NCBI GenBank assembly: GCA_910586225.1
Contig: CAJUIL010000014.1
Location: 22,966 to 86,965 of the forward strand
Origin: an uncultured Eubacterium sp.
GTDB taxonomy: Bacteria > Bacillota > Clostridia > Lachnospirales > Lachnospiraceae
DNA length: 64,000 bases
Direction: 5' to 3'
The notes under the pieces are model-generated. The model made no database searches. It was not told the DNA's origin and worked only from the letters and a program-made list of their open reading frames with translations. Shown one piece after another: positions 35,254-50,791 of this stretch; positions within the stretch are counted from its first letter, which is position 1; each line of letters begins with the position of its first letter. Position numbers and translations under genes: made by a program.

Positions 35254-37545
35254 TTAGTTTTCATCCTGCCCCAGCGCTGCACGATAATTTTTTCCATGCT
35301 CATAGAATTCATTTTGCATACTGACGCTCGTCGGCAAGCCGGACATCCACTTCGCTTCTTCCGTAAGCACAGCCGCGTCTGTACCTTGCACCGGATTTAA
35401 CGCGATCCCATCATACAAGTATATTCCATTTACGAAAAATGGTTCGTCCTCGACATAAAAAATATTTACATAACCGTACATAGCGACCACCGACTGATCC
35501 AGCATACAATAAGAAATCTCAGAGTTGTAGTCTCCGGTCTGCCATTCGTATAACCGGAAAAACCCCATCCTCCTGCCGTCCATCGCAGGCGCATCCCCCA
35601 GTTTTTCTATCGCCTGCCGTCCCGCTTTCATGATAGGGAGCAGATATTTTGCCATACGCTCCCAAGAAACGCGCTCTTTGTATATCCCGCTGCCGGAAGG
35701 ATCAATAATTTTCATAATCTCCTCATACTGCTGCCCATACACTTCCGCCTGAGAGCGATCCGTTAGGATCGTACGATAAAGCTGGTATGCAAAACGCATC
35801 TGAGATGCAAGCAAATACATCTGCTCACAGACCGCATCGCGGTATTCTTCCAGGCTGATCGCCTGGTCACCGTACAGGCTCTGCAAAATACACAGATTCT
35901 GATACTTCGTACTCATATCGCAGCTTTCATCCACAAGACTGTCCAGGAAATATAAACGCCCCTCCAGCTCCTCTACAGCTGCTCTGGCATCTGTCACGCA
36001 TTGCAGACAAGCATCGCTGATCGATTCATTCATATCGGCCATATTTTTGTAATAAACATCGCTGGCGTCGATCATGCCAGAGGCCGCAAGACTAAAAAAC
36101 AGTCCGCCCGGAATATATTTTGCAATTTTTCCAACTGCATAATTCAGCTGATTATTTTCTTGCACCCACTCGCTGCCCGCCATATCGTACTGGGCTTCAA
36201 AATTTTTGATAGAATAGTTCCTGACAGCCTGACAGTCTGAGTCAATCTGCCAAATCTGCTTCCGATATCCGCTAAGCGGCTCTAACAGCTTTTCCCCTAC
36301 ATCCCGAATACCCTGAAAAACCTCAAACGCAGTATCATATTCTGCAATCTTCGCCTTTAACTGTTCTGCCTGCTGCGCCAGTGTGCCGGCAGGTTCCGCT
36401 TCATCCTCCGTAACTTCCGGCAGCTCCATGCCAATAGCTTCTACTACATCTTCCGGCACATCGAATGAACTTTCCATACACTGCTTTTGATCCAGCATCG
36501 CAATCATGACCTCGTTGCGCACATACTGCCGATACACTGTTTCCATTTTCTCATAGCACTGTTTCCAGTCGAAATCAGCTCCTTCGCCAGAAACGCCCAG
36601 CTCCTCCAAGATATTGCCAAACTGGGAGTATTGATACATCATCTCTCCCATATCCTCGGACGACACCTGGCTTTTCTCCAGAAAAGCCGCTATTTCCTGC
36701 GTAGAATCCTGCGCGCTTTCCGACAGCTGCGATAAAAGAGCCGTGGGGGTCTTATCATAATCCAAAACCCCGCTGATCTCCCCGATCAACCCGCCCGCCA
36801 TCTCATCTGCCAGATCTTCATAAGATGCGCCTTCCAGCAACCCTTTTGCCGCGCTTGCCAGCCCTCCGGTCGTTTGATCCAAAATAGAAAGCGCATACTT
36901 TTGCGGTATCTCCTGAATTGCTGCCGTAACGCCATTTGTTACAGAATCCGCCGCACTGCTTAAAGCGTCTGTCAGGCTGCCGCTGGATCTGAATGCCTCC
37001 AACGATCCGGAAACCCCGTTTCTCAAGATCTCACGCACATCGTCATTCGCAATCTCCGACAGGATACTGTCTGTAACCGTATCTGTAATCAAATCCTTAT
37101 ATTCGCCGATCGCCGCATCCACGGCGCCGCCGGACGAAAAGCCGTCTGGAACCTCCACGCCGATGCTCCCCATTACAAGCGTTTTCATCTCCACTGCTAA
37201 AAGCGTATTCTCCTGATAGCATCGGAGCATTTCACTCTGGATCAATTCTTCCAAAGACAGATCTGTGATCTCTTTTAACGTATCCTGACATCGCTGCGCT
37301 GCTTCCCTCTGCTGCCTATAACCGGACATCTGTATTTCCAGCTTTGCTTTCAGCTTTGCAAGATCCGTTTTTGATATCTCATCTACCCGGCGCAATCCCT
37401 CCGCCTCATCCGGCTGCGCCTCCCTGACGCCCGCTTCCTGCTGCTTGTCTTCCACAGCTGTCTTATGACAGCCTGCTATGGGAAATGTGAGGATAAAAAC
37501 CGTAACAAGCAGAATAACAGGCAGAAAACATTTGTTATTTCTGTT
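35254..37545 (-). CDS. Large lipoprotein of unknown function (about 760 aa)
   Basis: The start MNRNNKCFLPVILLVTVFILTFPIAGC has a lipobox, after a G-rich RBS. Largely alpha-helical, acidic, no recognised domain. Co-oriented and contiguous with the upstream YD-repeat lipoprotein. Confidence 0.6.
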   Translation of the reverse strand, partial: NRNNKCFLPVILLVTVFILTFPIAGCHKTAVEDKQQEAGVREAQPDEAEGLRRVDEISKTDLAKLKAKLEIQMSGYRQQREAAQRCQDTLKEITDLSLEELIQSEMLRCYQENTLLAVEMKTLVMGSIGVEVPDGFSSGGAVDAAIGEYKDLITDTVTDSILSEIANDDVREILRNGVSGSLEAFRSSGSLTDALSSAADSVTNGVTAAIQEIPQKYALSILDQTTGGLASAAKGLLEGASYEDLADEMAGGLIGEISGVLDYDKTPTALLSQLSESAQDSTQEIAAFLEKSQVSSEDMGEMMYQYSQFGNILEELGVSGEGADFDWKQCYEKMETVYRQYVRNEVMIAMLDQKQCMESSFDVPEDVVEAIGMELPEVTEDEAEPAGTLAQQAEQLKAKIAEYDTAFEVFQGIRDVGEKLLEPLSGYRKQIWQIDSDCQAVRNYSIKNFEAQYDMAGSEWVQENNQLNYAVGKIAKYIPGGLFFSLAASGMIDASDVYYKNMADMNESISDACLQCVTDARAAVEELEGRLYFLDSLVDESCDMSTKYQNLCILQSLYGDQAISLEEYRDAVCEQMYLLASQMRFAYQLYRTILTDRSQAEVYGQQYEEIMKIIDPSGSGIYKERVSWERMAKYLLPIMKAGRQAIEKLGDAPAMDGRRMGFFRLYEWQTGDYNSEISYCMLDQSVVAMYGYVNIFYVEDEPFFVNGIYLYDGIALNPVQGTDAAVLTEEAKWMSGLPTSVSMQNEFYEHGKNYRAALGQDEN

Positions 37546-37567
37546 CATAAATCCTACCCCCCCTGCA

Positions 37568-38914
37568 TCATGCGCCTTCATAGACAAATTTATACTGACA
37601 CCCATCTCTGTAGCCGTAGCCGTACGGCAACTGCACCCCTATTTCATCTTTAATATATTGGCTTACGAAATCCAAATCATTTACCTGAAGGATTGAATCA
37701 ACATCCAAATGTTTGTAAAGCTCATTACGAGTCGCCTGCACCAGCTGCTCTCCTTCATAGACCAACTCCCATTCAGTTACATCATTGACTGCGGTGGATA
37801 CAAGCTTCCCGTTCTCCCCGTATGTATAACTGCGTACCCATTCATCAGTTTCGTTAAGATTCTCAAAAACAGTTTCTTCCGCCACCTGTCCGTTTGCATC
37901 ATAAGAAATAATCACCGAAGCCCTTATATCCCCGTCACTTATTTCCTTAATGGACCACGGTCGTCCCTCCTCGTCGTATTCGTATTCATATTCGGTTTCG
38001 TAATAATTATTACTACTGCTCCTACTCTTAAACACTTGATTTCCATATTCATCATACTGATAATTATAAATTAACGCCTCATCTGCAATAGATAAAATCT
38101 GTCCATCTTCGCTGAATGAAACGGTTTCCCGACAAAACCTATCATTGCCTGACGAAGGAATGATTTCTGCTGTATCATCCCCATAGACAACGTCATAAAT
38201 ATCGTGATAGCCCTCATCATAGCTACCCTCTGCAGCGCTCACCAGCCGATTCTCATGATCATATGAATACGATTGACCCCATGATCCATCCACATTCCAG
38301 CTCTTTAAAAGACTCTCGTTTGTATGAACCGTAATACCCTTAAAGTGATCTAAATGACTAATCCCGCTGTCAAAGCCTGGCTCATTCTTTAAATAAGCAA
38401 GCAAGTTAAAGCCTTTCACCTTATTTCCCGCTTCATCAGTCAGATATTCATATTGTAACTCACTTATTACCTGACCAGACTTATCCACTAACACCCTTTT
38501 TATCAAATCCAGATCCTTATCATAATAATACGTTCTAGGTTCGCCTGTTTCTTCGTCATTCACGATCCCCATCCATTCTATCTGCTGTAAAAGACCGTGC
38601 ACCTTTTCTTCCCCTTCCTGTGCTGTATCCGAACCATCAGATATTCCTTGCCCGTCTGATCCCGTTGTCTGGTCCTGTATATTTGTTTCATCTGGTACAC
38701 TTGGCTCATCCTGCACTGTCGTATTATCCGATACTGCCGTATCATCCTGCACCGCCGTATCATCCGGTACCGTTGTCGTATTATCCTCCTCAAATTCGTT
38801 CTGTGAAACAACCGTATCCTGCGAAACCTGTTTTGGCTTCCCACAGCCTGACAAGAGAAACATTCCGCTAAGTGCCGCTACAGATAAAAAATAAATAAAA
38901 TTTTTCCTTTTCAT
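37568..38914 (-). CDS. Lipoprotein with YD-repeat (Rhs-like) motifs
   Basis: Lipobox LLSGC, a low-complexity D/T/Q-rich linker, then multiple YxYDxxG(N/R)xV motifs (YSYDHENRLV, YQYDEYGNQV, YEYDEEGRPW, ISYDANGQVA, YTYGENGKLV). Confidence 0.6.
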   Translation of the reverse strand: MKRKNFIYFLSVAALSGMFLLSGCGKPKQVSQDTVVSQNEFEEDNTTTVPDDTAVQDDTAVSDNTTVQDEPSVPDETNIQDQTTGSDGQGISDGSDTAQEGEEKVHGLLQQIEWMGIVNDEETGEPRTYYYDKDLDLIKRVLVDKSGQVISELQYEYLTDEAGNKVKGFNLLAYLKNEPGFDSGISHLDHFKGITVHTNESLLKSWNVDGSWGQSYSYDHENRLVSAAEGSYDEGYHDIYDVVYGDDTAEIIPSSGNDRFCRETVSFSEDGQILSIADEALIYNYQYDEYGNQVFKSRSSSNNYYETEYEYEYDEEGRPWSIKEISDGDIRASVIISYDANGQVAEETVFENLNETDEWVRSYTYGENGKLVSTAVNDVTEWELVYEGEQLVQATRNELYKHLDVDSILQVNDLDFVSQYIKDEIGVQLPYGYGYRDGCQYKFVYEGA

Positions 38915-39094
38915 AATTAAGATCCCCTATTCTACTCCTATGTAAAACTGCTGAGCTACAACTTTCTAAATACTATTTTTGAACGAAAACTTTCTAAATC
39001 CAAAAAACAAGCACACCTCCTTTTCAGCATTTCACGATACATACAATATCCGAAAAAATTTTATGAAGTACGACTAACTGTGATATCGTTAACT

Positions 39095-39135
39095 TCATTC
39101 TACCCCCCCCCACAAACTATTTGTCAATAGAAATT
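39095..39135 (-). promoter_or_regulatory. Candidate promoter with G9 homopolymer in the spacer (TTGACA-N19-TAGAAT) upstream of the lipoprotein operon
   Basis: Minus strand ctaTTGACAaatagtttgtGGGGGGGGGTAGAATgaag. The C9 run sits at 39103-39111 on the plus strand. Confidence 0.45.
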
Positions 39136-39319
39136 TGCAAAACTCCCAAAACAAAAATGTGCCGCTCTCATTGACAAAGTACACTTGATGTACTAACATA
39201 AATAGTACATTTTGCAGGCTCAATCTCAACACAAAGCGAAAATTTCCAATACGTTCTAGTGAAATGGGAATGCTGATATATCTTTTAAAACAAGTGGAGA
39301 AAAAACGCCTAATGCTGTA

Positions 39320-40094
39320 GCAAATTTTTTTAAGGTTACAAAGTCTATGGCTACAAATATGGCAACTTCTTTACTTCACAAAGGATATATTTACTGATCA
39401 TAAAACGTTTCCTAATGCTTTAAAAGATATTGACCGGGTATTTATCATGCGACCTCCCCACTTGGGAAATCCAGAAGATCTGAAGCCTTTTATTGACGTT
39501 TTGAGAGAAGGTGGCAAGATAAGGCTTGTCGGTTTCTTATCCTTGATAGGAGTTGAAAATAACCCATTCCCTCCGCATCATAAAATCGAGAAATATATTG
39601 AATATGCCAGTCTTCCATATTGTCATATTCGCCCCAGCTTTTTTATGCAGAACATCAGCGGTGTACACGCTATTGAAATTAAGCATTTTAATAAGATCGT
39701 CGTTCCTGTAAAAAAATCGTTAACCAGTTTTATAGACGCAGAGGATGTTGGAGAAATTACAGCCAAAGTCTTATGTGAGCCGGAATTACATCAGGGTAAA
39801 ACTTATTCTATAACAGGCGCAGAAGCAATCGACTACTGGCAGGTAGCTAAAATCTTGTCAAAAGAATTAGAGAGAGAAATCATATATACGAATCCTGATC
39901 CATCATTTGCAAAAAAGTACTGGTTAAAGATCAGAGGTTTGGATCAAGATTATTGTACGGTTATGGGAATGCTCTATATGATGACACGTTTAGGAACGGC
40001 AAAGAAAGTCACTCCTGTTTTTGAACAGGTTATGGGAAAAAAACCTCGGACATTTCAGCAGTTTGTTAAAAAAAATTTAGCATTTTGGCAATAG
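39320..40094 (+). pseudogene. NmrA-family NAD(P)-binding protein with degenerate, frameshifted N terminus
   Basis: ORF 39447..40094 encodes the NmrA-like C-terminal two-thirds. Upstream in other frames there is a mutated Rossmann motif (KVTKSMATNMATSLLHKGYIY versus xVTGATGNxGxxLVxxLLxKGYxV) with stops. Confidence 0.5.
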
Positions 40095-40502
40095 AAAGTA
40101 AGCGGGAGAAAATGACTATTACATTTTCATATTTGCAGCAAGGTATTATGGCATTTTACAATTAGAAAGGAAAACGTATTAGAGCCAATGATGAGTCACT
40201 TGTATGCCACTTCTGTTATGCTTCACTTCTGCTCGTGATAGTGAAGCTGCTTATGAAACTGTTAAAGTATCAATCATGTTCATTCACATTTTTTGAAACA
40301 GCTCGTTTTATACAGAAAAATAAAGTGTGCAGTTAGATTTGCTGTATTTCTAACTTACACACTTATTTTACACTCCCAACAAGATATTGACCCATTGCTC
40401 CCCCAATCAAGGAAAGGGACTTTGTTCAATCCTGCAAGCATTCCGCACGCAATAGAATATTCTGTATATTTTGTGATAGTTACTCTGAATGTTAAATATT
40501 AT

Positions 40503-43205
40503 CTACATACTTTCGATCAACTCATCCAATTTTTTCAGCAACAGTTCATCCGGCTCCTGGTGGTGAATAAAGGAGCTGTCCATCCCATTCCTCCTCAGCC
40601 TGTCAATCCATTGCAGCGCTGCCTCTCGGCTAATGTTTTGCTCCAACATACCATAATAAATATATGCCAGTTCATTTGATACATTTGTATTAAAGACCGC
40701 CGGGTCATCGGAATTGATGCAGACAATTACATTCTGGACATCGTTTATCTGATTCATTTGGTATAACTGGTTTTCCTCCACCACATCCAAACCAGCAATC
40801 GCTGTATTGGAAGAGGGATTTACTTCTATAATAATACCTTTTCTCCCCAGCTTTTTCTTCAATATTTTCTGCAGCTCCTCTACAATCAGCAAATCCTGTT
40901 CTGTGATTTCATAATGAATGGGCCTTTCCATCTCTTTCACAAATTGTATACAGTGTCTAGCTGCTGCCAGCAGCGCAGAATCCCAGTGAATTTTCTTTCC
41001 TGCACATACCTTGCTGCAAAATTCCTTTTTTACCCTTTCATATGCTTGATCTTGAAAAACAAATAATCTGTGGTAACCTGATATCAGAAGCTCCAATGCA
41101 ATTCCTTCCTGTTCTGTTACCGCGCATTCTTCTCTATTTCCGTAAATTTTCCCAGACAATTCATAGATCTGCTTCTCCATATACGCCAAAATAGTAGCTT
41201 GGAAATCACTATAATTTTTACTCAATGTATCATATGCCCATAGATAATTTTCCAATGCTTCTATCTGCGGAATGATGATAACCGGATTTTGATTTTTCCA
41301 TTCCCTGGCGGAAATCCCAAGCGCAATTCCGTGGCCGATTCGATCTCCTGCATGAAATTTTAAATAATCCACAGCCTCGTCAATCCTTCTCAGCCCTGAC
41401 AAAATATGCCGAAAATCTTCTCCCGCATGAAAAGTAAAACCAAGACTTTGCGTATAGTCTCCATACTCATTTCTTCTTCCAATCTTTTCTATGCTGCTGT
41501 CTCTTGCTTTTTCATAGATTGGCGCAAATACCCAGACTGGCGTTGAATTTTCCAAACTTGCTGCATCTATTCCCACCAAATATCTGCTCAACTCACTGTA
41601 TTCTGACCTTAATTGAATGAAATTTTCAATCTGCTGTTGATAGCTTTGTTGGAGTTTGCCAAAGTGAAAATACGAACAGTCGTCTTTTCCATTTTGAAAG
41701 CATTTCTCCGGCACTGACGAATCTGGCTTTTTCAGAAAATGAATCACCAATCCCACCTGGGGAATTTTACGATATAGGATATATTCCTTTTTTTCATCAT
41801 CATAATAGGAATAATCTTCCTTTAATATTTTCTGATACGCTTTCAGAAAACTCAGTAGTTCCTTTCTGAACTTTGCGTAAGACATCGGTATGGAGGATCG
41901 AAATTCCACCTTAAATAAATCCTGATTCTGTAACTGTTCTCGCATTGCAGTTTCCCAAAAATTTTTTATATTCGCATGGCTCAAAGCAGAATTTACACCA
42001 TAATGCTCCTGCTGAAAATAATCCAGTCCTTTTATTGTCTTCTGCTGCACGCTCACATGGAACAAATAATTCCTGACCCTCAAATACTGCATCAAACATT
42101 GCTTCATATCCCATGTCATTTTTTCGTTCATCATCATGTATAACGCATAATATAAAAAAACATTTTCATCCATAGTATGAAGTTCAGAATCTTCATTTAA
42201 AATAGATGTACAAAAACGTTCCTCGGAAAAAGGCTCCTGCTGAATTTCTTTAAGGCTGTCCCAAAGCCCTATATAATAAGCAGTAATTTCTTTTTCATCT
42301 TTATCCTCATAATTATCTCTGAAAAATTTCTCAAACATCTGTCCTTCCTGAAATTTTTCAATCAGCTCCTCCACTTTTTCTCCATATGCATTTGGTCCAG
42401 ACTTCTGCCCCTTAATCAAAACAGATGAAATTTCCAAAGCCAGATATGCCCTGACAATTCCACTGCCCAATATGTAAAAAATCAATCGATTATTTTGCTC
42501 TTCTGTGCCGTCAATAAATTTCCGCTCCCAGAAAAAACTGCTGTCTTTTACCGTAAGCGGAGCCATCAGTGAGTCCCATATGCTTGAGAATGTTCTGGAC
42601 ACTCCTTTATGCAGGTGGTTCTCGGCAACTCCTTTCTCCAGAATTTTAGACAACTGCTGATCCGCCACCTCTATATTACCATAAAAGTAATCCAGACATC
42701 TAGCATCCAGTTCTTCCTGATTAATGATCATATAGACAATCCCAATTACGTCCATCGGAATGTGACAGTTCAGGCTGTGAAACAAAGTTACCTTGTTATG
42801 ATTTGCAAATCCACCAAATAACTCCTTATCGTTTTTATTCCTCCAATACTTAAAAACGATTCGTCCATCTCTGTGAGAAATTAAAGCTGCCGCCATCTTT
42901 TCCATAATATATTGGTACAGCTGTAAAGCATTGTCAAAACCTTTTTCTCCATCTACATAACCATAATAAAGATAGCACTTTTCCAGATACAAATATATTT
43001 CATCATAGGAATAAATATTGTAGTTTCGACGGATATAGCTGATCAACTGGCTTTTCAGACGTTTTCGTATATCTTCTGCTTTCTTTTTCTCTCCCGCTTT
43101 TACAGCAAAAATATATTCATTGATAAGATCTTCCCGGAATGCTTCCATGGACGTAAACGGATAACATAAAACCCCCAGAAAGCGGTTGATAGAATCATTC
43201 ATCAT
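40503..43205 (-). CDS. RdrB-like large protein with C-terminal adenosine-deaminase-family domain
   Basis: 900 aa. C-terminal amidohydrolase/ADA motifs: ENHLHKG (HxH), FHAGEDF (HAGE), RIGHGIAL, EVNPSSNTAIAGL, CINSDDPAVFNTNVSNELAYI (SxNxDDP). N-terminal ~500 aa unassigned. RBS AGAGG. Starts 15 nt after the stop of the upstream ATPase gene. Confidence 0.7.
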   Translation of the reverse strand: MMNDSINRFLGVLCYPFTSMEAFREDLINEYIFAVKAGEKKKAEDIRKRLKSQLISYIRRNYNIYSYDEIYLYLEKCYLYYGYVDGEKGFDNALQLYQYIMEKMAAALISHRDGRIVFKYWRNKNDKELFGGFANHNKVTLFHSLNCHIPMDVIGIVYMIINQEELDARCLDYFYGNIEVADQQLSKILEKGVAENHLHKGVSRTFSSIWDSLMAPLTVKDSSFFWERKFIDGTEEQNNRLIFYILGSGIVRAYLALEISSVLIKGQKSGPNAYGEKVEELIEKFQEGQMFEKFFRDNYEDKDEKEITAYYIGLWDSLKEIQQEPFSEERFCTSILNEDSELHTMDENVFLYYALYMMMNEKMTWDMKQCLMQYLRVRNYLFHVSVQQKTIKGLDYFQQEHYGVNSALSHANIKNFWETAMREQLQNQDLFKVEFRSSIPMSYAKFRKELLSFLKAYQKILKEDYSYYDDEKKEYILYRKIPQVGLVIHFLKKPDSSVPEKCFQNGKDDCSYFHFGKLQQSYQQQIENFIQLRSEYSELSRYLVGIDAASLENSTPVWVFAPIYEKARDSSIEKIGRRNEYGDYTQSLGFTFHAGEDFRHILSGLRRIDEAVDYLKFHAGDRIGHGIALGISAREWKNQNPVIIIPQIEALENYLWAYDTLSKNYSDFQATILAYMEKQIYELSGKIYGNREECAVTEQEGIALELLISGYHRLFVFQDQAYERVKKEFCSKVCAGKKIHWDSALLAAARHCIQFVKEMERPIHYEITEQDLLIVEELQKILKKKLGRKGIIIEVNPSSNTAIAGLDVVEENQLYQMNQINDVQNVIVCINSDDPAVFNTNVSNELAYIYYGMLEQNISREAALQWIDRLRRNGMDSSFIHHQEPDELLLKKLDELIESM

Positions 43206-43220
43206 GATATTTACCTCTGC

Positions 43221-46200
43221 TTATTCATTGACTTTAAATAACTCTTCAAAGTCTTTAGAATCTATTTTTTGTTCTAAGTTCTTATTCAATTCATCTATAA
43301 AATTCTCCAATACCTGTCTGTCAGCCTCCTTATGTGCGTCTGGTAATTTTTTCGCTATTTCTGATAACAAACGGGCATTCTGTATAATATTCTTACTCTG
43401 CTCTGCTTCCATTTTGTATTTATACAGACATTGTAAAAGAAACGCAAAATAAGAATGCCTCTTAACCCATGTATCCCAGTCCAGCTCATCTGGCTCAACT
43501 TCTGTATTTTGCATTTTTGGCTCAGCTGATGCTTTTTGCAATTCATTTAAAATCTGCTGCGCTTCATATTGCCCATACCGGACACGGTTATTTCCGGCTA
43601 ATTTGCCTAGCTCCTTGATTACTTTTCCGTATGTCTCAAAAGACATTCCTTCCTGAAAGCCTTCTTCTTTTTTATCATCAAGACACCGTGAGACATTATT
43701 TCGTATGCATTTGGCCTTCGTATTAGATACGCCAGCATATATTTTTTGTAAATTTTCCCAGCTCTCCTCGGCGTCACTTGTCTTTAATTTCCAATGTTTA
43801 CCACCTTCCACAGCTTTTTGGATAAATTCAAGATACCTATCTACCATCCTTTTTAAATAAACTGCTGCATTCTCCGCAGCTTCTACCTGCCAAAGTATGC
43901 CTGAATGTATCGCCTTTAAAACTTCTGCCTTTCTTTTCAGATCTTCTCTATCTTTATCTTCTTTGATCTCCTTTTCCCCTTCCTCTTTAGATTTATCCGC
44001 AACATACAAATTATCAAAATAAATCTCTTTCCACTCTTCTTCAATTTCATCCTGATCCTGCGCTGCCAAAATTCTAGCCAATGTATTTGACAGAATCCGA
44101 TTCATTGTTCTTTTTTCTTCCCACGATCCATCCTTGACAACCGCATTTATTTCATCACTAAATATTCTTATCACAATGTTTTGTGCGACAGAACTTGACA
44201 GTTGATTTCGGATATATGCAAATTCTTTCCAAAAAACCGGGTAATGCCTGGCAATTATTTCCAATGTCGTTTTCGAATTTACCTTTGCTATTGATGAAAA
44301 AGACTTCCACATGGCAATTACAACATCCTGCTCCAATTCTGCTGTGGAAATTATATCGGCATTTGATACGTCCGATGCTCTATCTTCATACAATCTCAAT
44401 ATTCTATCTAACGGGAGATTTTTATAGTATGCCAAATTCAGTATCAAATCTCCCTTTAACAGAAAGCTGCCGTTTACATCCTTTAGCTTCATATCTTGCA
44501 GCGCCGGGTATTCCTTGATCCCTTTCCTTTGCGCCTCATCTTTTGATCTTTTCTTATCTACGCTTTCCCATCCGTAATTGGAAACCTCCATCACCTTTTC
44601 CGCTATCACAGGATGGAAAAACAAGTCTTTCATTGCTTTATCCTTTAGATTTTTATAACATCCATCTTCTTTTATCTGCTCTTCATAATTATCCACTTCG
44701 TACAGAAGCCTGGCCGCAAAATCCACCAGAATAAACAAAGAAAACCTTTCTACGGGATCTGTTATCTCATATTCTTCCCGACCTTGGGAATGGTCCGCCG
44801 GATCCTTACTCTTATAAATGACTGCCTCCGCATTATCAAAAAACACTTTGCTGTCTGTATTTGTCCCTATATGGAAAAAATTCAACTGTATATCGGTTCT
44901 ATATTTGTTATAAATTGGTTTGGAAGATATGATCGTATCCAGCAGCAATTTCTTTTCTTTGGAATAATCCTTCCCTTGTTCTTTCTTTTCCGTTGAAATT
45001 TCGCCCAGAACATTATAGACATTATTCAGGCCGCGGGAAGTATTGTCAAATAAATGATACGTATAGGGCAGATTCCGTTTCTCGCTTTCTTCCTGCTTTT
45101 CATCCTCCATGTCCTGCCTGATCTGCGCATAGCAAAAAAAAGCTGGATCAACCCACCCCTTTAATTTCTCAACCAAAAGTTCGGAAAGCGTAATTCCCGC
45201 TTTCTGTCCTTTCTCATTTGCTTCATCAGGGAGCGCTTCTTTTCTCTGAATCTCTTCCCGCTCTGTAATGCAGTAATTTCCCTTTTCCTCTAAAGACCAG
45301 AATTTAATGTGATACCTGTATGCAGGAGGAATGATCTTTTTCAAATATTCATAAGCAAGCTTCTGTTTGCTGTCAAGCAGCGTATTGCTGCCTATTTTCT
45401 TATCCAGAATATCCTTGTTCAGCACATTTTCCTGTCTAAGAAAATCTAATGTCAATGCTTCCTCAAATGTCTCAAGATCCCCTGAAATAAAAGTGACAAT
45501 ATTTTCATTGGACAGATAGGAAAGCAGCGTCTTTACAACATCCGCACACCGATATGTGCTTAAATCAATATCGTCTATAAAAAGGAAAAGAAGGCTGCCA
45601 TCCTGTCTCCCTGCATCTACCAATTCGTCAACCAGTTCATGAAATTTATTGATAAATTCCGTATCCGAATTAAATACACTCGTTGAGCGGTTTACATAAT
45701 CATTCTCCGTCGTGTATTGGCTGATCAGGATATCCCGGTATTCTTTCTGGATATAGGTATACTGCTTGATCACTTCATCATACTTTTTCCGAAGCTCAGT
45801 TTTCTTAATGCAATCGACGTTACTTTTTTTCTGCCTTTTTTTCTCTTGCTCGTCCCTTTCCTTTATTACTTCATTCAGCATTCCCAGAACGGTTGCCATC
45901 AACGTACCGGATTCCGACATATTCTCTGGAACGATGATGGGAAGGATAATATCATGCAGCGTATGCTTGTTCTTTTCCAGCTGAACACGAATTGTCTTTA
46001 AAATAGATGTCTTACCTGCTCCTCGGACACCTATGATTCCTATATTGTTGGTTTTTTGATCTTTATCTCCGCCATTTACCTTTTGTCCTTTCGAGTTGCC
46101 TATAAAAGTTTTTTCTGTACGAAACTGATCTATCTGATAATAGATCCGATTGTAATTTGGCATAATTAATTCGGCCTCTAAATCCGACAGGCATCTCGCT

Positions 46201-46235
46201 CCTATTTTATTTTTACTTTCCTTTTGTTCATTCAT
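43221..46235 (-). CDS. RdrA-like large P-loop ATPase
   Basis: 1004 aa. Walker A GVRGAGKTS, Walker B LLFLFIDDIDL, long helical Lys/Glu-rich C-terminal region. RBS AAGGGGGAATAACGATG. AT-rich codon usage, unlike the flanking genes. Confidence 0.7.
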   Translation of the reverse strand: MNEQKESKNKIGARCLSDLEAELIMPNYNRIYYQIDQFRTEKTFIGNSKGQKVNGGDKDQKTNNIGIIGVRGAGKTSILKTIRVQLEKNKHTLHDIILPIIVPENMSESGTLMATVLGMLNEVIKERDEQEKKRQKKSNVDCIKKTELRKKYDEVIKQYTYIQKEYRDILISQYTTENDYVNRSTSVFNSDTEFINKFHELVDELVDAGRQDGSLLFLFIDDIDLSTYRCADVVKTLLSYLSNENIVTFISGDLETFEEALTLDFLRQENVLNKDILDKKIGSNTLLDSKQKLAYEYLKKIIPPAYRYHIKFWSLEEKGNYCITEREEIQRKEALPDEANEKGQKAGITLSELLVEKLKGWVDPAFFCYAQIRQDMEDEKQEESEKRNLPYTYHLFDNTSRGLNNVYNVLGEISTEKKEQGKDYSKEKKLLLDTIISSKPIYNKYRTDIQLNFFHIGTNTDSKVFFDNAEAVIYKSKDPADHSQGREEYEITDPVERFSLFILVDFAARLLYEVDNYEEQIKEDGCYKNLKDKAMKDLFFHPVIAEKVMEVSNYGWESVDKKRSKDEAQRKGIKEYPALQDMKLKDVNGSFLLKGDLILNLAYYKNLPLDRILRLYEDRASDVSNADIISTAELEQDVVIAMWKSFSSIAKVNSKTTLEIIARHYPVFWKEFAYIRNQLSSSVAQNIVIRIFSDEINAVVKDGSWEEKRTMNRILSNTLARILAAQDQDEIEEEWKEIYFDNLYVADKSKEEGEKEIKEDKDREDLKRKAEVLKAIHSGILWQVEAAENAAVYLKRMVDRYLEFIQKAVEGGKHWKLKTSDAEESWENLQKIYAGVSNTKAKCIRNNVSRCLDDKKEEGFQEGMSFETYGKVIKELGKLAGNNRVRYGQYEAQQILNELQKASAEPKMQNTEVEPDELDWDTWVKRHSYFAFLLQCLYKYKMEAEQSKNIIQNARLLSEIAKKLPDAHKEADRQVLENFIDELNKNLEQKIDSKDFEELFKVNE

Positions 46236-46866
46236 CGTTATTCCCCCTTATACTTTTCCTTGCGTTTTCTCTTTTGACCAGCAAAGTGTAGAATAGAATT
46301 GAGACGATTACTCATATCTACTCCCCATACTGCTCCGCTAAACAGAGTCTTTGTACATGGAAACAGATTTTTTATAATAAATTCAAGAGAACGATCCTGC
46401 CATCGTCCTGTGTTTTCTATCAGTAATTCTTTGTTGTAATTATAACATACATTTTAACTAAATTTATGAAAAACAGCAAATGTAATTTATATAAGTTAAT
46501 AGCCTTCTATTTATACTGGCAACCTGTCCCTCAGACACAACACCCAACCTCGATTGTGTCAGGTTAATATCATACCATTCTGTCATTCAGCATCCCCGCC
46601 GTTTATCAGTAAGCATATTTTGACCAGCCAGACGAAAAAGCATTCTGCCGGCAAAAGGTCAGATCCGTAATATAACAGAGCAGCCCCAAAAAACAGAATT
46701 TCAGAAATCCTTGTGGTAATTTTTTGCCAAGTTACTGAAATCTGCTGTGGATATGTAAAAATATGTTGATCCCACACGCATTTTACTGTTTTCAGCAGTC
46801 AAAAATTATCAGGGCTAAAAATCAGCGGAACACCTTGCTTTTACAGGCATCCCGCTGATTTTAACC

Positions 46867-48552
46867 TCACACATTCCGAAAATTCTCAAACGTCTTATAC
46901 AAATCCAGCTGCCCCCACCCCCATTCCCGATTCGGATACTCCCTAGAATCATCCCTGACCGCCCCGCGAATAAAATAATTCTTAATATTCGCCGTCGTAG
47001 CCGAAATATCATTCCTCCTAACCCCAGTCCATTCCAACATCAACGCCCCCGCGCCCGCTGTAATGGCAGCGGCTACGCTCGTGCCGCTGCGGGTCTCAAA
47101 TTTTCCTTCTCCGACCGGGCCGTATATGTCTACGGCAGGAGCCGCGATATCTGGCTTGATCTCCCGTGTTGCTGTATAACCACGACCGGATTCAAAGAAA
47201 ACGCTTCCGTCCAGGCCGTTGTATCCGGCGACTGTGATCGGCGCTTCCGCGTCTGATGGTACCGTAATGGTTGTGTCCGGATTAGAGCGGATAAAAAATA
47301 CTGGGCCGGAAACCATATCCTCCATTGGAACCCAGACATGATAAATGCCGTCTGTAAAATTGCGTACGGATACGTTCAATATCCAGACACCGGATATCGG
47401 CTTATGAAATCTTACATAAATCAGTTCGTTCCTGTTCGCCGCGCCTGTCAGCAGGTAATCGACCGTTACCATAGTACCTTCAAACAAAAAGCGGTATTCC
47501 GTATGGCTGCCGGGCGCAGTTGGCAGCGCATTAAAGCGCTCTCCGGTCGGGGAAATGACGGTTACCTCATATAGCTCTGGCGCTTCTGCCCACAATTCCG
47601 CAATAAAGCCTTCCACGCCTTCCGCTACGCTGATCTCCACACGCTCCTGCGCATTTTGTCCGCTAATGCCTCCCTGAAAATGATGCCTTTTATCCGCTTC
47701 GTTTCCGCAGGCCACCGCCACACAGCGCTGCCTGCGGTTGGATACCTCGTTGAGCGTATGCGCTAACGGGCTCGCACCGCCGCGGTTGCCCATGTTCGTG
47801 CCGAGCGCGATGCAGATGGACAACGGCTTACGCAGTTCTGAAGCCAGCATATTCAGATAACGGATACCGGCCATAATATCATTTTCCTGGAACACCGGCG
47901 TATCGTCCGGGATATAATAAAAATCCTTTAAGTACTGCTTTGCGGACTTTAGCTGTACAAACGCGATGTCGCATTCCGGTGCTGCGCCGCTGAACTGGTT
48001 GTCAAAATCCTCCGAACCAGCCGCCAATGCTGCCAGAAATGTACCGTGACCGTCCGCATATGGTATTTTTGCCGTCATCGAATCGTGATTAGCCAAAAGC
48101 TCCTCGTTGATCTGCTCCCTCGTATATTCCGTCCCGTACAAAAATCCTCTGGGCGGCATACCGCTGCGCTCCTCTTGGTTCCAAATACGCTCCACGCGCG
48201 TTGTACCATCCGTATTGCAAAACAGCGGATTTGTATAGTCAAAATCCGTGTCAATAAAGCCCATCAGCACACCCCGCCCAGTCAGAGCCAGGTTCGGCTG
48301 GTCGCGCACTTTTAAAATGCCGCTCTCGCCAAGCGCGAGGTTGTTCAAGAGTCCAAAGCATTTCGGGATAATGCCGTAAGAAAAATCACCTGTTTTTAAT
48401 TGCCTGCCGCGCATATGATCATAGACAACTACATAATCCTCATCCAATTCCTGTACGCAGTAATCTCCTGGAGGGACATCCTCCATAAATTCCTTTGTTG
48501 CAAGAAAGTCAAAATAATCGTTTGAATAAACAGCCTCTTCACAATCTGTCAT
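46867..48552 (-). CDS. S8-family (subtilisin-like) serine peptidase
   Basis: Catalytic triad contexts GFIDTDF (Asp), HGT (His), GTSVAAA (Ser). RBS GCAGGAG before MTDCEE. Confidence 0.8.
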   Translation of the reverse strand: MTDCEEAVYSNDYFDFLATKEFMEDVPPGDYCVQELDEDYVVVYDHMRGRQLKTGDFSYGIIPKCFGLLNNLALGESGILKVRDQPNLALTGRGVLMGFIDTDFDYTNPLFCNTDGTTRVERIWNQEERSGMPPRGFLYGTEYTREQINEELLANHDSMTAKIPYADGHGTFLAALAAGSEDFDNQFSGAAPECDIAFVQLKSAKQYLKDFYYIPDDTPVFQENDIMAGIRYLNMLASELRKPLSICIALGTNMGNRGGASPLAHTLNEVSNRRQRCVAVACGNEADKRHHFQGGISGQNAQERVEISVAEGVEGFIAELWAEAPELYEVTVISPTGERFNALPTAPGSHTEYRFLFEGTMVTVDYLLTGAANRNELIYVRFHKPISGVWILNVSVRNFTDGIYHVWVPMEDMVSGPVFFIRSNPDTTITVPSDAEAPITVAGYNGLDGSVFFESGRGYTATREIKPDIAAPAVDIYGPVGEGKFETRSGTSVAAAITAGAGALMLEWTGVRRNDISATTANIKNYFIRGAVRDDSREYPNREWGWGQLDLYKTFENFRNV

Positions 48553-48678
48553 AAACAACTCCTGCTATTTTCCTTCTATTCCATCATATGAAAAAAGCTT
48601 TAAAAGGTCCACAGCAACCTTTTAAAGCTTTTACATATCATCCATATCACAGCTGCGGCAAGCCGAACTGCTGCAATG

Positions 48679-49182
48679 CTAATCAGAAAAAATGATACTC
48701 GCATGGTGCATCCGGACTTCATTCAGCATCGCCTCCGACGGCTCCACCTTGACCTCCTGCAGCATCCCCTGGCTGGCAAAGATCATGCTGTAGATCCGGT
48801 GCTCCGGATTGCCGGAAGAAAAATCACGCACCTTAAGCTGCGGATTAGAATGATAGGCGTCCAGCCTGTGCGAATGAACCGGCGCCATGCACTGGAGCTC
48901 GCTTAACGCATACGACGTAAGTTTTTTGCGTTTGCTTTTATTTTTTACTACCGCAATATCCAGCTCATCTGAGACAAGCAGATATTCGTACTCCCGGTAT
49001 CGGTTTTTCAATGTGGAAAAGCTCACCGGGATCATGACGATGCCTATCAGCAAAAACAACATCTGAAACATCGCGCCGAATAATAATAAACCCATCGTAA
49101 GCAAGATTAGGCAAACTCCCAGCTTCTTCCCCGCGATATCCTTTTCATCATGCACGATCACCTCTGCATATGACTCTGACAT
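48679..49182 (-). CDS. Hypothetical membrane protein
   Basis: 167 aa with two TM helices. No family recognised. Confidence 0.4.
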   Translation of the reverse strand: MSESYAEVIVHDEKDIAGKKLGVCLILLTMGLLLFGAMFQMLFLLIGIVMIPVSFSTLKNRYREYEYLLVSDELDIAVVKNKSKRKKLTSYALSELQCMAPVHSHRLDAYHSNPQLKVRDFSSGNPEHRIYSMIFASQGMLQEVKVEPSEAMLNEVRMHHASIIFSD

Positions 49183-49342
49183 ATATTCCTCCTTTATAAC
49201 CCTACGCTCCCCGAACAGGAAGCCTTATCTTTTCCTCCTTACTCAGGAAGCCCTCTTTGTATGCTCAGCCCTGCCTCCTGCTCAAGAAGCCCTTTTTGTA
49301 TGCTCAGCCTGCCTCTTGACGCAAGAAACCCTTTTTATATAC

Positions 49343-50791
49343 TCAGCCTGCCTCCAGGCCGTCCCTTGCGTGCTCCGGCAGCCCATGTACACCACGCATC
49401 GTGATCAGCGGCCCGCCCTTTCCTTCTACATAATCCTCCGTAATGGTAACGACGCCGATATTGTCATCCTTTGGGATTTCATACATAATATCCAGCATAA
49501 ACTCTTCCAGAATGGCCCGCAACGCCCTGGCGCCGACCTTCTTTTCCTTTGCTTTTTTGGCAATCGCGTGCAAGGCGTTATCTTCAAATTCCAGACGCAC
49601 CTCGTCGTAATCCAAAAGCTTCTGGTACTGCTTGATAATCGCGTTTTTCGGCTCCGCCAAGATACGCACAAGCATATCCTCCGTCAGCGCTTCAAGGGAA
49701 AATAAGATCGGAAGCCTGCCGATAAACTCCGGGATCATGCCGAATTTACGGATATCCTCTACCGTTACCTTGGACAGCAGGTTTTCCTCTTTATCGTATT
49801 TATCCTTTAAATCCGCCTGAAAGCCGATCGAGGACGCTTTGTTCAGACGTTCCTTGATGATCTCATCCAGATCCGGAAAAGCGCCGCCGCAGATAAATAA
49901 AATGTCCTTCGTATTGACAGTCGTCATCGGCACCATCGCGTTTTTACTGCTGGCACCAACCGGAACCTCCACCTCGGCGCCTTCCAGCAGCTTTAACATT
50001 CCCTGCTGTACCGATTCGCCGCTTACATCGCGCTGGTGGGTGTTTCTTTTTTTCGCAATCTTGTCTATCTCATCAATAAAAATAATCCCATGCTCCGCCC
50101 GGTCTACATCATTGTCAGCCGCCGCAAGCAGCTTGGATACGACGCTTTCAATATCGTCCCCGATATAGCCCGCCTCCGTCAGAGAGGTCGCGTCCGTGAT
50201 CGCTAACGGCACATCCAAAAGCCTTGCCAGCGTCTTGACCAGATACGTCTTGCCAGATCCGGTTGGACCGACCATCAGCATATTGGATTTCTCAATCTCA
50301 ATATCGTCCTCGCGGCCGCTGCTGATGCGCTTATAGTGGTTGTATACCGCTACGGACATTACCTTCTTCGCGTGCTCCTGACCCACGACATAATCATCCA
50401 GCTTTGCCTTTATTTTATGCGGCGCCGGTATTGCATTGATATCAAAAACAGGAGCTTCTTTTTTTTCCTTTGGCTTTTTCTTTTTAATCTTCTGCGTATT
50501 CGGCATCATATTCTGCAGATCCGACAAATTGATCATGCTGATATTCGGCATTCTGCCGCCCGTATTCTGCATCGGGCCAAGAATATCATCCAACCGGAAC
50601 CCAGATTGGTTCATGCCGTCAAACGTACGCTGCATACAGTCCTGACAGATGCAGATATTATTCGGTATTTTGATCATTCTGCCAGCTGCACTCTCCGGAC
50701 GATGGCAGATATAGCAGACTTCCTCATAATCATCATTTTTCTCTTCCTTGGATCCGTTCAGATCCACTTCTCTGAAATCATGTTCTGACAT
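49343..50791 (-). CDS. clpX: ATP-dependent Clp protease ATP-binding subunit ClpX (long N-terminal zinc-finger/linker variant)
   Basis: C4 zinc finger (CYICH...CICQDC), a K-rich linker and an AAA+ module (LMVGPTGSGKT, IIFIDEIDK, GYIGDD). No clpP adjacent. Confidence 0.85.
   Translation of the reverse strand: MSEHDFREVDLNGSKEEKNDDYEEVCYICHRPESAAGRMIKIPNNICICQDCMQRTFDGMNQSGFRLDDILGPMQNTGGRMPNISMINLSDLQNMMPNTQKIKKKKPKEKKEAPVFDINAIPAPHKIKAKLDDYVVGQEHAKKVMSVAVYNHYKRISSGREDDIEIEKSNMLMVGPTGSGKTYLVKTLARLLDVPLAITDATSLTEAGYIGDDIESVVSKLLAAADNDVDRAEHGIIFIDEIDKIAKKRNTHQRDVSGESVQQGMLKLLEGAEVEVPVGASSKNAMVPMTTVNTKDILFICGGAFPDLDEIIKERLNKASSIGFQADLKDKYDKEENLLSKVTVEDIRKFGMIPEFIGRLPILFSLEALTEDMLVRILAEPKNAIIKQYQKLLDYDEVRLEFEDNALHAIAKKAKEKKVGARALRAILEEFMLDIMYEIPKDDNIGVVTITEDYVEGKGGPLITMRGVHGLPEHARDGLEAG

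Follow-up and report, generated by a model that had tools for sequence, protein, structure and literature searches.

A predicted two-gene RADAR anti-phage cassette with a hypervariable RdrA lobe at a defence-cargo hotspot of an uncultured Lachnospiraceae bacterium

Introduction

RADAR is a two-gene anti-phage system, comprising the ATPase RdrA and the ATP deaminase RdrB, which Duncan-Lowey et al. (2023; PMC9994260) detected in 270 genomes out of about 38,000, spanning 7 phyla. Its activity has been shown for the systems of Escherichia coli, Citrobacter rodentium and Streptococcus suis, and RADAR from S. suis SS993 protects E. coli against T2, T4 and T6 (PMC9994260). The RADAR architecture consists of heptameric RdrA rings on a dodecameric RdrB shell; the trigger of the system is described as unknown, and a role of the RdrA C-terminal domain as the phage sensor is put forward as an untested proposal (PMC9994260). 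Here, we describe an rdrA-rdrB pair in a stretch of 64,000 nt from an uncultured Eubacterium sp. of the Lachnospiraceae (contig CAJUIL010000014.1, positions 22,966 to 86,965; hereafter the window), which on the basis of its sequence, predicted structures and analogy to the studied systems is very probably a functional RADAR anti-phage system.

Several of the systems listed in Table S1 of PMC9994260 are relevant for comparison with the window, namely those of Lachnospiraceae bacterium A4 (RdrA/RdrB of 937/903 aa), Lachnospiraceae bacterium 3-1 (fragmented), Clostridium sp. ASF356 (1000/894 aa), Anaerotignum propionicum (955/889 aa) and Paenibacillus gorillae. An adenosine deaminase (ADA) fold like that of RdrB is also present in Cad1, a CARF-adenosine deaminase effector of type III CRISPR systems that carries out antiviral deamination of ATP to ITP.

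Results

A RADAR gene pair of an already catalogued clade

The window contains two large co-oriented genes separated by 15 nt, as described in a first-pass annotation made from the sequence letters, which read them as an rdrA-rdrB arrangement:

43221..46235, minus strand: rdrA, ATG start, predicted 1004-aa AAA+ ATPase (open reading frame (ORF) list, RdrA hidden Markov models (HMMs), sequence match to PDB 8fnu, Foldseek)
40503..43205, minus strand: rdrB, ATG start, predicted 900-aa enzyme of split adenosine-deaminase fold (ORF list, RdrB HMMs, PDB 8fnw/8fnv, Foldseek)

This reading was borne out by matches to the RdrA and RdrB HMMs, which fell below the NCBIfam curated cut-offs, by sequence matches to solved structures, and by Foldseek searches with the predicted structures.

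Scanning of one genome per species with an RdrB profile recovered four of the Table S1 genomes with matching protein sizes. The identity of their RdrB to that of the window is 63% for A4, 77% for 3-1 and 39% for ASF356, in each of these three over the full length, and 30% for P. gorillae; the 955-aa protein of Anaerotignum propionicum (P0224) is a full-length RdrA match. The closest relatives in the genome collection are from an uncultured Dorea sp. metagenome-assembled genome (MAG, 90%) and Petralouisia muris (87%); many mouse-gut MAGs were also recovered. The A4, 3-1 and ASF356 systems share the gene order of the window, and their protein sizes are close to its 1004/900 aa, with 48% identity between the RdrA proteins of A4 and the window. 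The window differs from them in carrying another allele, in another uncultured Lachnospiraceae of mouse-gut type and in another genomic context. Its RADAR belongs to an already catalogued clade and is not a new Gram-positive variant; the suggestion of a divergent variant overstated its novelty, since A4, 3-1, ASF356 and Anaerotignum propionicum were already catalogued and the S. suis RADAR is known to defend (PMC9994260).

The recovered clusters, most of them from gut metagenomes, number about 170 for RdrB-like and 340 for RdrA-like proteins. In 85 of the 97 loci compared, most of which were recovered through RdrB, the gene immediately before the RdrB-like gene is RdrA-like. Most relatives are unnamed in public sources, and seven of eight plasmid matches are annotated as 'hypothetical protein'. 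In a sister RADAR clade (L043-L057, P0220-P0240), whose RdrB identity is about 44%, the RdrA proteins are 1110-1230 aa long and match the first ~600 residues of the window RdrA only; the C-terminal lobe therefore appears to be replaced there. On the conjugative Aliivibrio salmonicida plasmid pVSAL840 (L113:7334-11535), the reference rdrA-rdrB pair adjoins a GTPase/GASH (GTPase-associated system) module and an IS30 transposase.

Comparison with the systems of solved structure indicates a common fold at low identity. The S. suis SS993 system (8fnu) is Gram-positive like that of the window, and the fold of its RdrA matches over about 830 columns, with about 14% identity in the structural alignment; similarity at the sequence level is detectable only in the ATPase domain, and the window RdrA is ~100 aa longer. 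The E. coli P0304799.3 system (8fnt, 8fnv, 8fnw, 8hr7, 8hr8) likewise shares with the window a two-layer fold of RdrA and a split-ADA fold of RdrB, at 11-16% structural-alignment identity and with the window proteins ~100 aa longer. The assembly and the ATP-to-ITP activity are attributed to the window proteins by analogy with this system. In contrast to Cad1, the window deaminase has no CARF domain as a cyclic-oligoadenylate sensor and is partnered with an AAA+ ATPase, and its Foldseek matches to Cad1 have E values of about 0.5-1.

The deaminase has the RdrB fold and an intact set of predicted zinc ligands

The deaminase matches the RdrB profiles of PADLOC (E = 2.7e-34) and NCBIfam (NF041744, E = 1.5e-57), and its residues 368-875 match E. 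coli RdrB (8fnw/8fnv) at E = 6e-20. Pfam A_deaminase (PF00962) matches only the last ~110 residues, covering profile positions 226-324 of 330, and hhalign of the RdrB family profile against the single Aliivibrio RdrB aligned the C-terminal part only, with 99.9% probability.

Monomeric AlphaFold models of both proteins were built from family alignments of 35-36 members (A1 for RdrB, A2 for RdrA). The RdrB model has a predicted local distance difference test score (pLDDT) of 73.4 and a predicted template-modelling score (pTM) of 0.74. All eight of its Foldseek matches at E ≤ 0.001 are RdrB (8fnv, 8hr7; E from 2e-14 to 5e-12), with template-modelling (TM) scores of 0.53-0.66 over 860-960 columns, and the next match has E = 0.35. 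Foldseek also accounts for the ~500-aa N-terminal region of the deaminase and the ~700-aa C-terminal region of the ATPase, in which the first-pass annotation recognised no domain: they form the portions of the fold that are specific to RdrB and RdrA, respectively.

The deaminase motifs noted earlier (HxH, HAGE, RIGHG, E-x-N-P-SN and DDP) are all present, the fourth as EVNPSSN at aa 794-800, and the others are located as follows:

42609..42617, minus strand: HLH, aa 197-199, HxH zinc ligands H197 and H199 in the context AENHLHKG, invariant in A1
41418..41429, minus strand: HAGE, aa 593-596, zinc ligand H593 and catalytic Glu E596, aligned by phmmer with E. coli H498 and E501, respectively
41331..41342, minus strand: RIGH (RIGHG, aa 622-626), zinc ligand H625, aligned with E. 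coli H530
40701..40712, minus strand: SDDP, aa 832-835, with D833 and D834, aligned with GSDDP of E. coli RdrB

Residues H197, H199, H593, E596, H625, D833 and D834 are invariant in alignment A1. In E. coli RdrB, H498 and H530 are zinc ligands and E501 is the catalytic glutamate (PMC9994260). By motif and spacing only, H197 and H199 would correspond to E. coli H152 and H154; the PGAP-annotated Aliivibrio RdrB has ADNHIHLG, the same context as AENHLHKG. The HxH motif lies 396 aa from HAGE, compared with 346 aa in E. coli and 355 aa in Aliivibrio, and this long spacing identifies the protein as a split deaminase of the RdrB type, with an insertion of ~390 aa. As judged from the sequence, all four histidines of the putative zinc site (H197, H199, H593, H625) are retained, as is the catalytic Glu596, in line with the active site proposed earlier.

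The ATPase has the RdrA fold and intact nucleotide-binding motifs

The ATPase matches the RdrA profiles of PADLOC (E = 1.2e-11, N-terminal residues 21-309 only) and NCBIfam (NF041743, E = 1.5e-12). The best PDB sequence match is S. suis RdrA (8fnu), at E = 1.5e-5 over residues 62-278. Pfam assigns the generic AAA_16 family, and KAP_NTPase (PF07693) gave no match to the window ATPase at E ≤ 0.1; a precomputed PF07693 match is present on a few relatives, and the depositor name of 8fnu is 'KAP NTPase domain-containing protein'.

The RdrA model has a pLDDT of 78.5 and a pTM of 0.74. Its 20 Foldseek matches at E ≤ 0.001 are without exception RdrA chains (8hr8, 8fnu, 8fnt, 8hra, 8hrb, 8hr7, 8fnw_M), with E values down to 8e-10 and most alignments longer than 800 columns; the next matches are TRIP13 and ORC, at E > 0.02. 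The two ATPase motifs noted in the first-pass annotation are present:

46005..46031, minus strand: Walker A, GVRGAGKTS, aa 69-77, aligned with GDRGTGKTS of S. suis RdrA
45564..45590, minus strand: Walker B, LFLFIDDID, aa 216-224 (LFLFIDDIDL, 216-225), placed by hhalign on IDDVD of the PGAP-annotated Aliivibrio RdrA

The hhalign alignment of the RdrA family profile with the single Aliivibrio RdrA covered the Walker B region only, with 95% probability. In alignment A2, G72, G74, K75, D221 and D222 are invariant, and T76 and the sensor-1 residue D253 are nearly invariant. E. coli RdrA has its Walker A residues at G81/K82/T83, Walker B at D221/D222 and sensor 1 at D253 (PMC9994260). These correspond to G74-K75-T76, D221-D222 and D253 of the window protein, in nearly the same numbering. 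The rdrA product is predicted to be an AAA+ ATPase in which the Walker A, Walker B and sensor-1 motifs are intact and whose C-terminal part forms a large alpha-helical lobe.

The RdrA C-terminal lobe is hypervariable

RdrA diverges faster than RdrB in all pairs compared: RdrA identity is 88% at an RdrB identity of 98%, 75-76% at 90%, 59% at 78%, and 45-48% at 63-68%. The least conserved region across the whole family is the following:

43386..44615, minus strand: RdrA C-terminal alpha-helical lobe, aa 541-950, hypervariable, proposed sensor region

Positions 40358-50171 of the window were compared with a locus of the same species (L006). The flanking region from ClpX to the S8 peptidase gene differs at about 0.5% of nucleotides and rdrB at about 2.3%, and the cassette alleles seem to predate the separation of the strains, or to have been exchanged between lineages. 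Across 43400-44600 (RdrA residues ~545-945) the difference rises to 10-19%, that is, a nucleotide identity of 81-90% versus 96-99% elsewhere in the operon. Small indels are present at RdrA aa 751-752, 853 and 908-916, and conserved blocks alternate with substituted positions.

The ratio of nonsynonymous to synonymous substitution rates (dN/dS) was determined by the Nei-Gojobori method for this one within-species allele pair. dS is about 0.08 and uniform across the operon, and dN/dS is 1.38 for RdrA 541-950, 0.12-0.14 for the RdrA ATPase core and 0.09 for RdrB. Substitution counts are 96 nonsynonymous and 18 synonymous in the lobe, 17 and 26 in the rest of RdrA, and 17 and 44 in RdrB (Fisher's exact test, p = 1e-7 for the lobe versus the rest of RdrA and p = 2e-13 for the lobe versus RdrB); residues 776-875 contain 46 nonsynonymous and 2 synonymous substitutions. 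From these data we infer that the lobe is under diversifying selection, and RdrB and the ATPase core under strong purifying selection.

Two other sources of the variability were considered. Mutagenesis of the diversity-generating retroelement (DGR) type was rejected, there being no adenine-specific substitution pattern and no template repeat. Recombinational import of a diverged segment was also rejected, since the hot zone has the same dS (0.078) as the remainder of the operon.

The variability of RdrA fits the proposed role of its C-terminal lobe as the phage sensor. A more specific reading, that the lobe, especially aa ~750-925, is a direct and allele-specific sensor of a phage protein, positively selected within one gut Lachnospiraceae species, is possible, though we stop short of calling it probable. 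A natural allelic series is available at this locus, with RdrA proteins of 1004, 998 and 996 aa, each accompanied by a nearly identical RdrB.

The cassette occupies a cargo hotspot downstream of an S8 peptidase gene

When the window is set against other Lachnospiraceae RADAR cassettes, DNA homology starts about 50 nt before the rdrA ATG (46235-46285) and ends at the rdrB stop codon (40501-40503); the shared unit is a minimal 5.8-kb two-gene cassette. In one other species the cassette lies beside DUF6273, GmrSD and HD-CE genes, and in another beside GntR and WYL genes. Within the species of the window, RADAR is present on every contig that reaches beyond the identical S8 peptidase gene, and no strain without RADAR was found among about 21 contigs read; RADAR therefore appears to be fixed at this site in the species. 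Two contigs of the same species (L102, L103) end at or inside the S8 gene, beside the hotspot, consistent with strain heterogeneity within the samples.

The insertion junction of the hotspot was located at the end of the S8 gene:

46871..46932, strand not assigned: hotspot insertion junction, 3' end of the S8 peptidase gene; these 62 bp are found on both sides of the insert of the sister strains

In the sister strains L003 (11679-19020) and L005 (11679-20446), in which S8 is identical to that of the window, an extra insert of 7.4-8.8 kb lies between S8 and rdrA. It carries a 55-aa ORF, a gene for a giant reverse transcriptase (1939 or 2438 aa) and a RhuM-like PDC-S05 gene; of the two reverse transcriptase forms, the longer one (2438 aa) was scanned and matches DRT RT_UG29 end to end with 1629 bits. 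A sister species (L104, 11693-14085) with an 81% identical S8 and the same upstream gene order has no RADAR after S8, its cargo there comprising a 118-aa ORF, an MNT (NTP_transf_2)/HEPN pair and small ORFs. In a further relative, S8 is followed by three genes and then the Band_7/361-aa/TPM module, which in the window lies at about 29-32.6 kb. These comparisons establish that the region of about 32.7-46.9 kb is variable and carries defence cargo, and that the site after S8 is a cargo hotspot across species. They also show that the pair is not part of a conserved core genome: elsewhere it occurs in unrelated contexts, and the sister species with the same upstream synteny is without it.

No direct or inverted repeats flank the island, and no tRNA-type scars were found. 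A search for carriage on mobile elements yielded no match in 50,697 phage records and only eight distant plasmid matches. Co-travel of the S8 peptidase with RADAR was rejected: the S8 found upstream in one other species is only 32% identical and was taken as a coincidence or a paralogue.

The island had been described as AT-rich over 40100-46860 and bounded by a decayed NmrA pseudogene. GC content is 0.36-0.40 over about 37.5-46.9 kb and 0.47-0.53 in the flanks on both sides; the AT-rich stretch is therefore real, yet wider than first drawn. Within the same low-GC variable region, two overlapping genes at 35254-38914 (minus strand) encode proteins of 448 aa (RHS/MORN repeats) and 783 aa (no family match), each with a lipoprotein-like N-terminus and neither with a PADLOC match. 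The NmrA-like ORF (39447-40094, plus strand) covers positions 124-273 of 298 of the Pfam profile; it is 5'-truncated, the N-terminal Rossmann part is missing and an in-frame stop lies upstream, all of which is consistent with decay and falls short of proving it. NmrA-like sequence continues upstream (39150-39446), broken by stop codons and preceded by about 530 nt of non-coding DNA.

Proposed mechanism and alternative explanations

By analogy with the E. coli and S. suis systems, heptameric RdrA rings would dock onto the RdrB dodecamer, and poisoning of the nucleotide pool would abort the infection. Comparison of the alleles suggests that the C-terminal lobe of RdrA would be the part that meets the phage. 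The minimal cassette would move among Lachnospiraceae genomes, and would here have settled in the variable defence hotspot that follows immediately after the S8 peptidase gene.

Several observations weigh against this interpretation. Neither protein reaches its NCBIfam equivalog cut-off, RdrA scoring 46.8 bits against 600 for NF041743 and RdrB 195.7 bits against 800 for NF041744. The sequence similarity of the window protein to known RdrA is confined to the ATPase domain, and the TM-scores of the RdrA model (0.26-0.37) are low despite the long alignments; the domain arrangement therefore differs or is mis-modelled. In the RdrB model, pLDDT falls below 50 exactly around the catalytic motifs. 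The clade is known here from sequence and predicted structures, the mechanism is transferred from proteins 11-16% identical in structural alignments, and the selection signal rests on one within-species allele pair together with between-species pairs. As regards the first of these points, the two NCBIfam models are tuned to proteins of the proteobacterial type, which explains the 'hypothetical protein' labels on relatives, and a score below the cut-off was not taken as a biological criterion.

The best-surviving alternative accepts the same RADAR system and differs in what RdrB would do: editing of adenosine to inosine in RNA stem-loops, and not deamination of free ATP or dATP, would be the cause of the growth stop. 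Gao et al. (2020) are said to have originally proposed such an RNA-editing mode for RADAR. The proposal is discussed in PMC9994260, where a weak A-to-G signature (about 4% in ssrA) is given for the Citrobacter rodentium system, and the titles of PDB entries 8hra and 8hrb describe RdrA rings 'in RNA-loading state'. However, E. coli RADAR protects without detectable RNA editing, and purified RdrB turns ATP into ITP (PMC9994260); moreover, the His tetrad of the window RdrB is of the ADA/AMP-deaminase type, not the ADAR/cytidine-deaminase type. RNA editing as the operative mode is thus improbable here, and deamination of free nucleotides by a RADAR complex is the preferred reading.

A different module that merely resembles RADAR, either a Cad1-like CARF-ADA effector or a KAP/STAND NTPase with an ADA effector, is very unlikely. 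It could draw on a weak PADLOC CARF_ADA match (7e-9), on weak Pfam AAA_16, NB-ARC and nSTAND matches of the ATPase, and on the scores of both proteins under the curated cut-offs. The CARF_ADA match, however, spans only profile positions 486-597 of 605, in the C-terminal deaminase strand region, and neither Pfam nor PADLOC yielded a CARF domain. In the Foldseek searches, Cad1 structures matched at E = 0.47-0.99 compared with 2e-14 for RdrB, and STAND/ORC-like ATPases at E > 0.02 compared with 8e-10 for RdrA. No CRISPR-Cas genes adjoin the pair.

Least likely of all is that the pair serves purine salvage, as a housekeeping adenosine/AMP deaminase and its accessory ATPase, or has become an inactive relic: Pfam A_deaminase and TIGR01430 do match the last ~110 residues, but TIGR01430 scores 53 bits against a cut-off of 216.55 and canonical Add is a contiguous TIM-barrel of ~330 aa, whereas the window deaminase is 900 aa long with a split fold, the pair is absent from the sister species with the same synteny and lies in unrelated contexts elsewhere, both ORFs are intact, and purifying selection acts on RdrB and on the ATPase core of RdrA (dN/dS 0.09-0.14).

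Operon layout

The two genes are accompanied by the following elements:

43206..43220, minus strand: rdrA-rdrB spacer of 15 nt, GCAGAGGTAAATATC, containing a GAGG ribosome-binding site, read from the sequence
46236..46285, minus strand: conserved leader upstream of rdrA with ribosome-binding site AAGGGGGAATAA, 5' edge of the shared cassette (alignment A3 and DNA homology)
40311..40365, minus strand: terminator-like hairpin and U-tract, 140 nt past the rdrB stop codon (fold energy)

The hairpin after the deaminase gene, reported earlier at 40322-40365, has a predicted folding energy of -19.9 kcal/mol on the minus strand (z = -2.9 versus shuffles) and is followed by UUUAUUUUU / UUUAUUUUUCU (U-tract). 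A simple terminator scan did not pick it up, probably owing to a loop longer than the 8 nt that the scanner allows. Between rdrB and the hairpin there is no ORF in the same orientation. Since the two genes are 15 nt apart, with a ribosome-binding site in the spacer and one terminator-like hairpin after rdrB, rdrA and rdrB are predicted to be co-transcribed.

The 631-nt gap upstream of rdrA contains short ORFs only: one of 40 aa (46464-46586, minus strand), which is called as a gene in public assemblies, and one of 25 aa (46238-46315, minus strand), which overlaps the ribosome-binding site of rdrA. Neither varies within the species, and neither has a match at any other RADAR locus compared; as accessory or third genes they were rejected, being without a counterpart upstream of other rdrA genes and probably not genes. 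Alignment of the upstream 295 nt from seven loci (A3) revealed no conserved promoter, conservation being limited to the last ~50 nt, which form the ribosome-binding-site leader. An extended -10 element, TGTTATAAT, is visible in the sequence at 46439-46447 and is not conserved in other species; its assignment is a guess. Downstream of it, within the rdrA upstream region, lies a terminator-like hairpin, AGGACGATGGCAGGATCGTTCT (46388-46409, minus strand), which is not conserved in other species either. A search of Rfam over 38800-47000 gave no structured-RNA match at E ≤ 0.1.

Discussion

The findings leave the understanding of what RADAR is unchanged. Their additions are the structure of the hotspot and the positive-selection signal on the RdrA C-terminal lobe, and are of moderate, specialist value.

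The clostridial/Lachnospiraceae RADAR clade is labelled 'hypothetical protein' in its few named public records and scores far under the NCBIfam RdrA and RdrB cut-offs, and defence inventories of the gut microbiome therefore probably undercount RADAR. The locus also provides a clean natural case of a minimal defence cassette of two genes, at a hotspot where DRT-UG29, RhuM-like and MNT/HEPN cargo is found as well. The within-species nonsynonymous excess, which is confined to the RdrA lobe, lends sequence-level support to the published idea of the lobe as sensor. If the lobe is indeed the sensor, the natural allelic series would provide a handle on the RADAR trigger.

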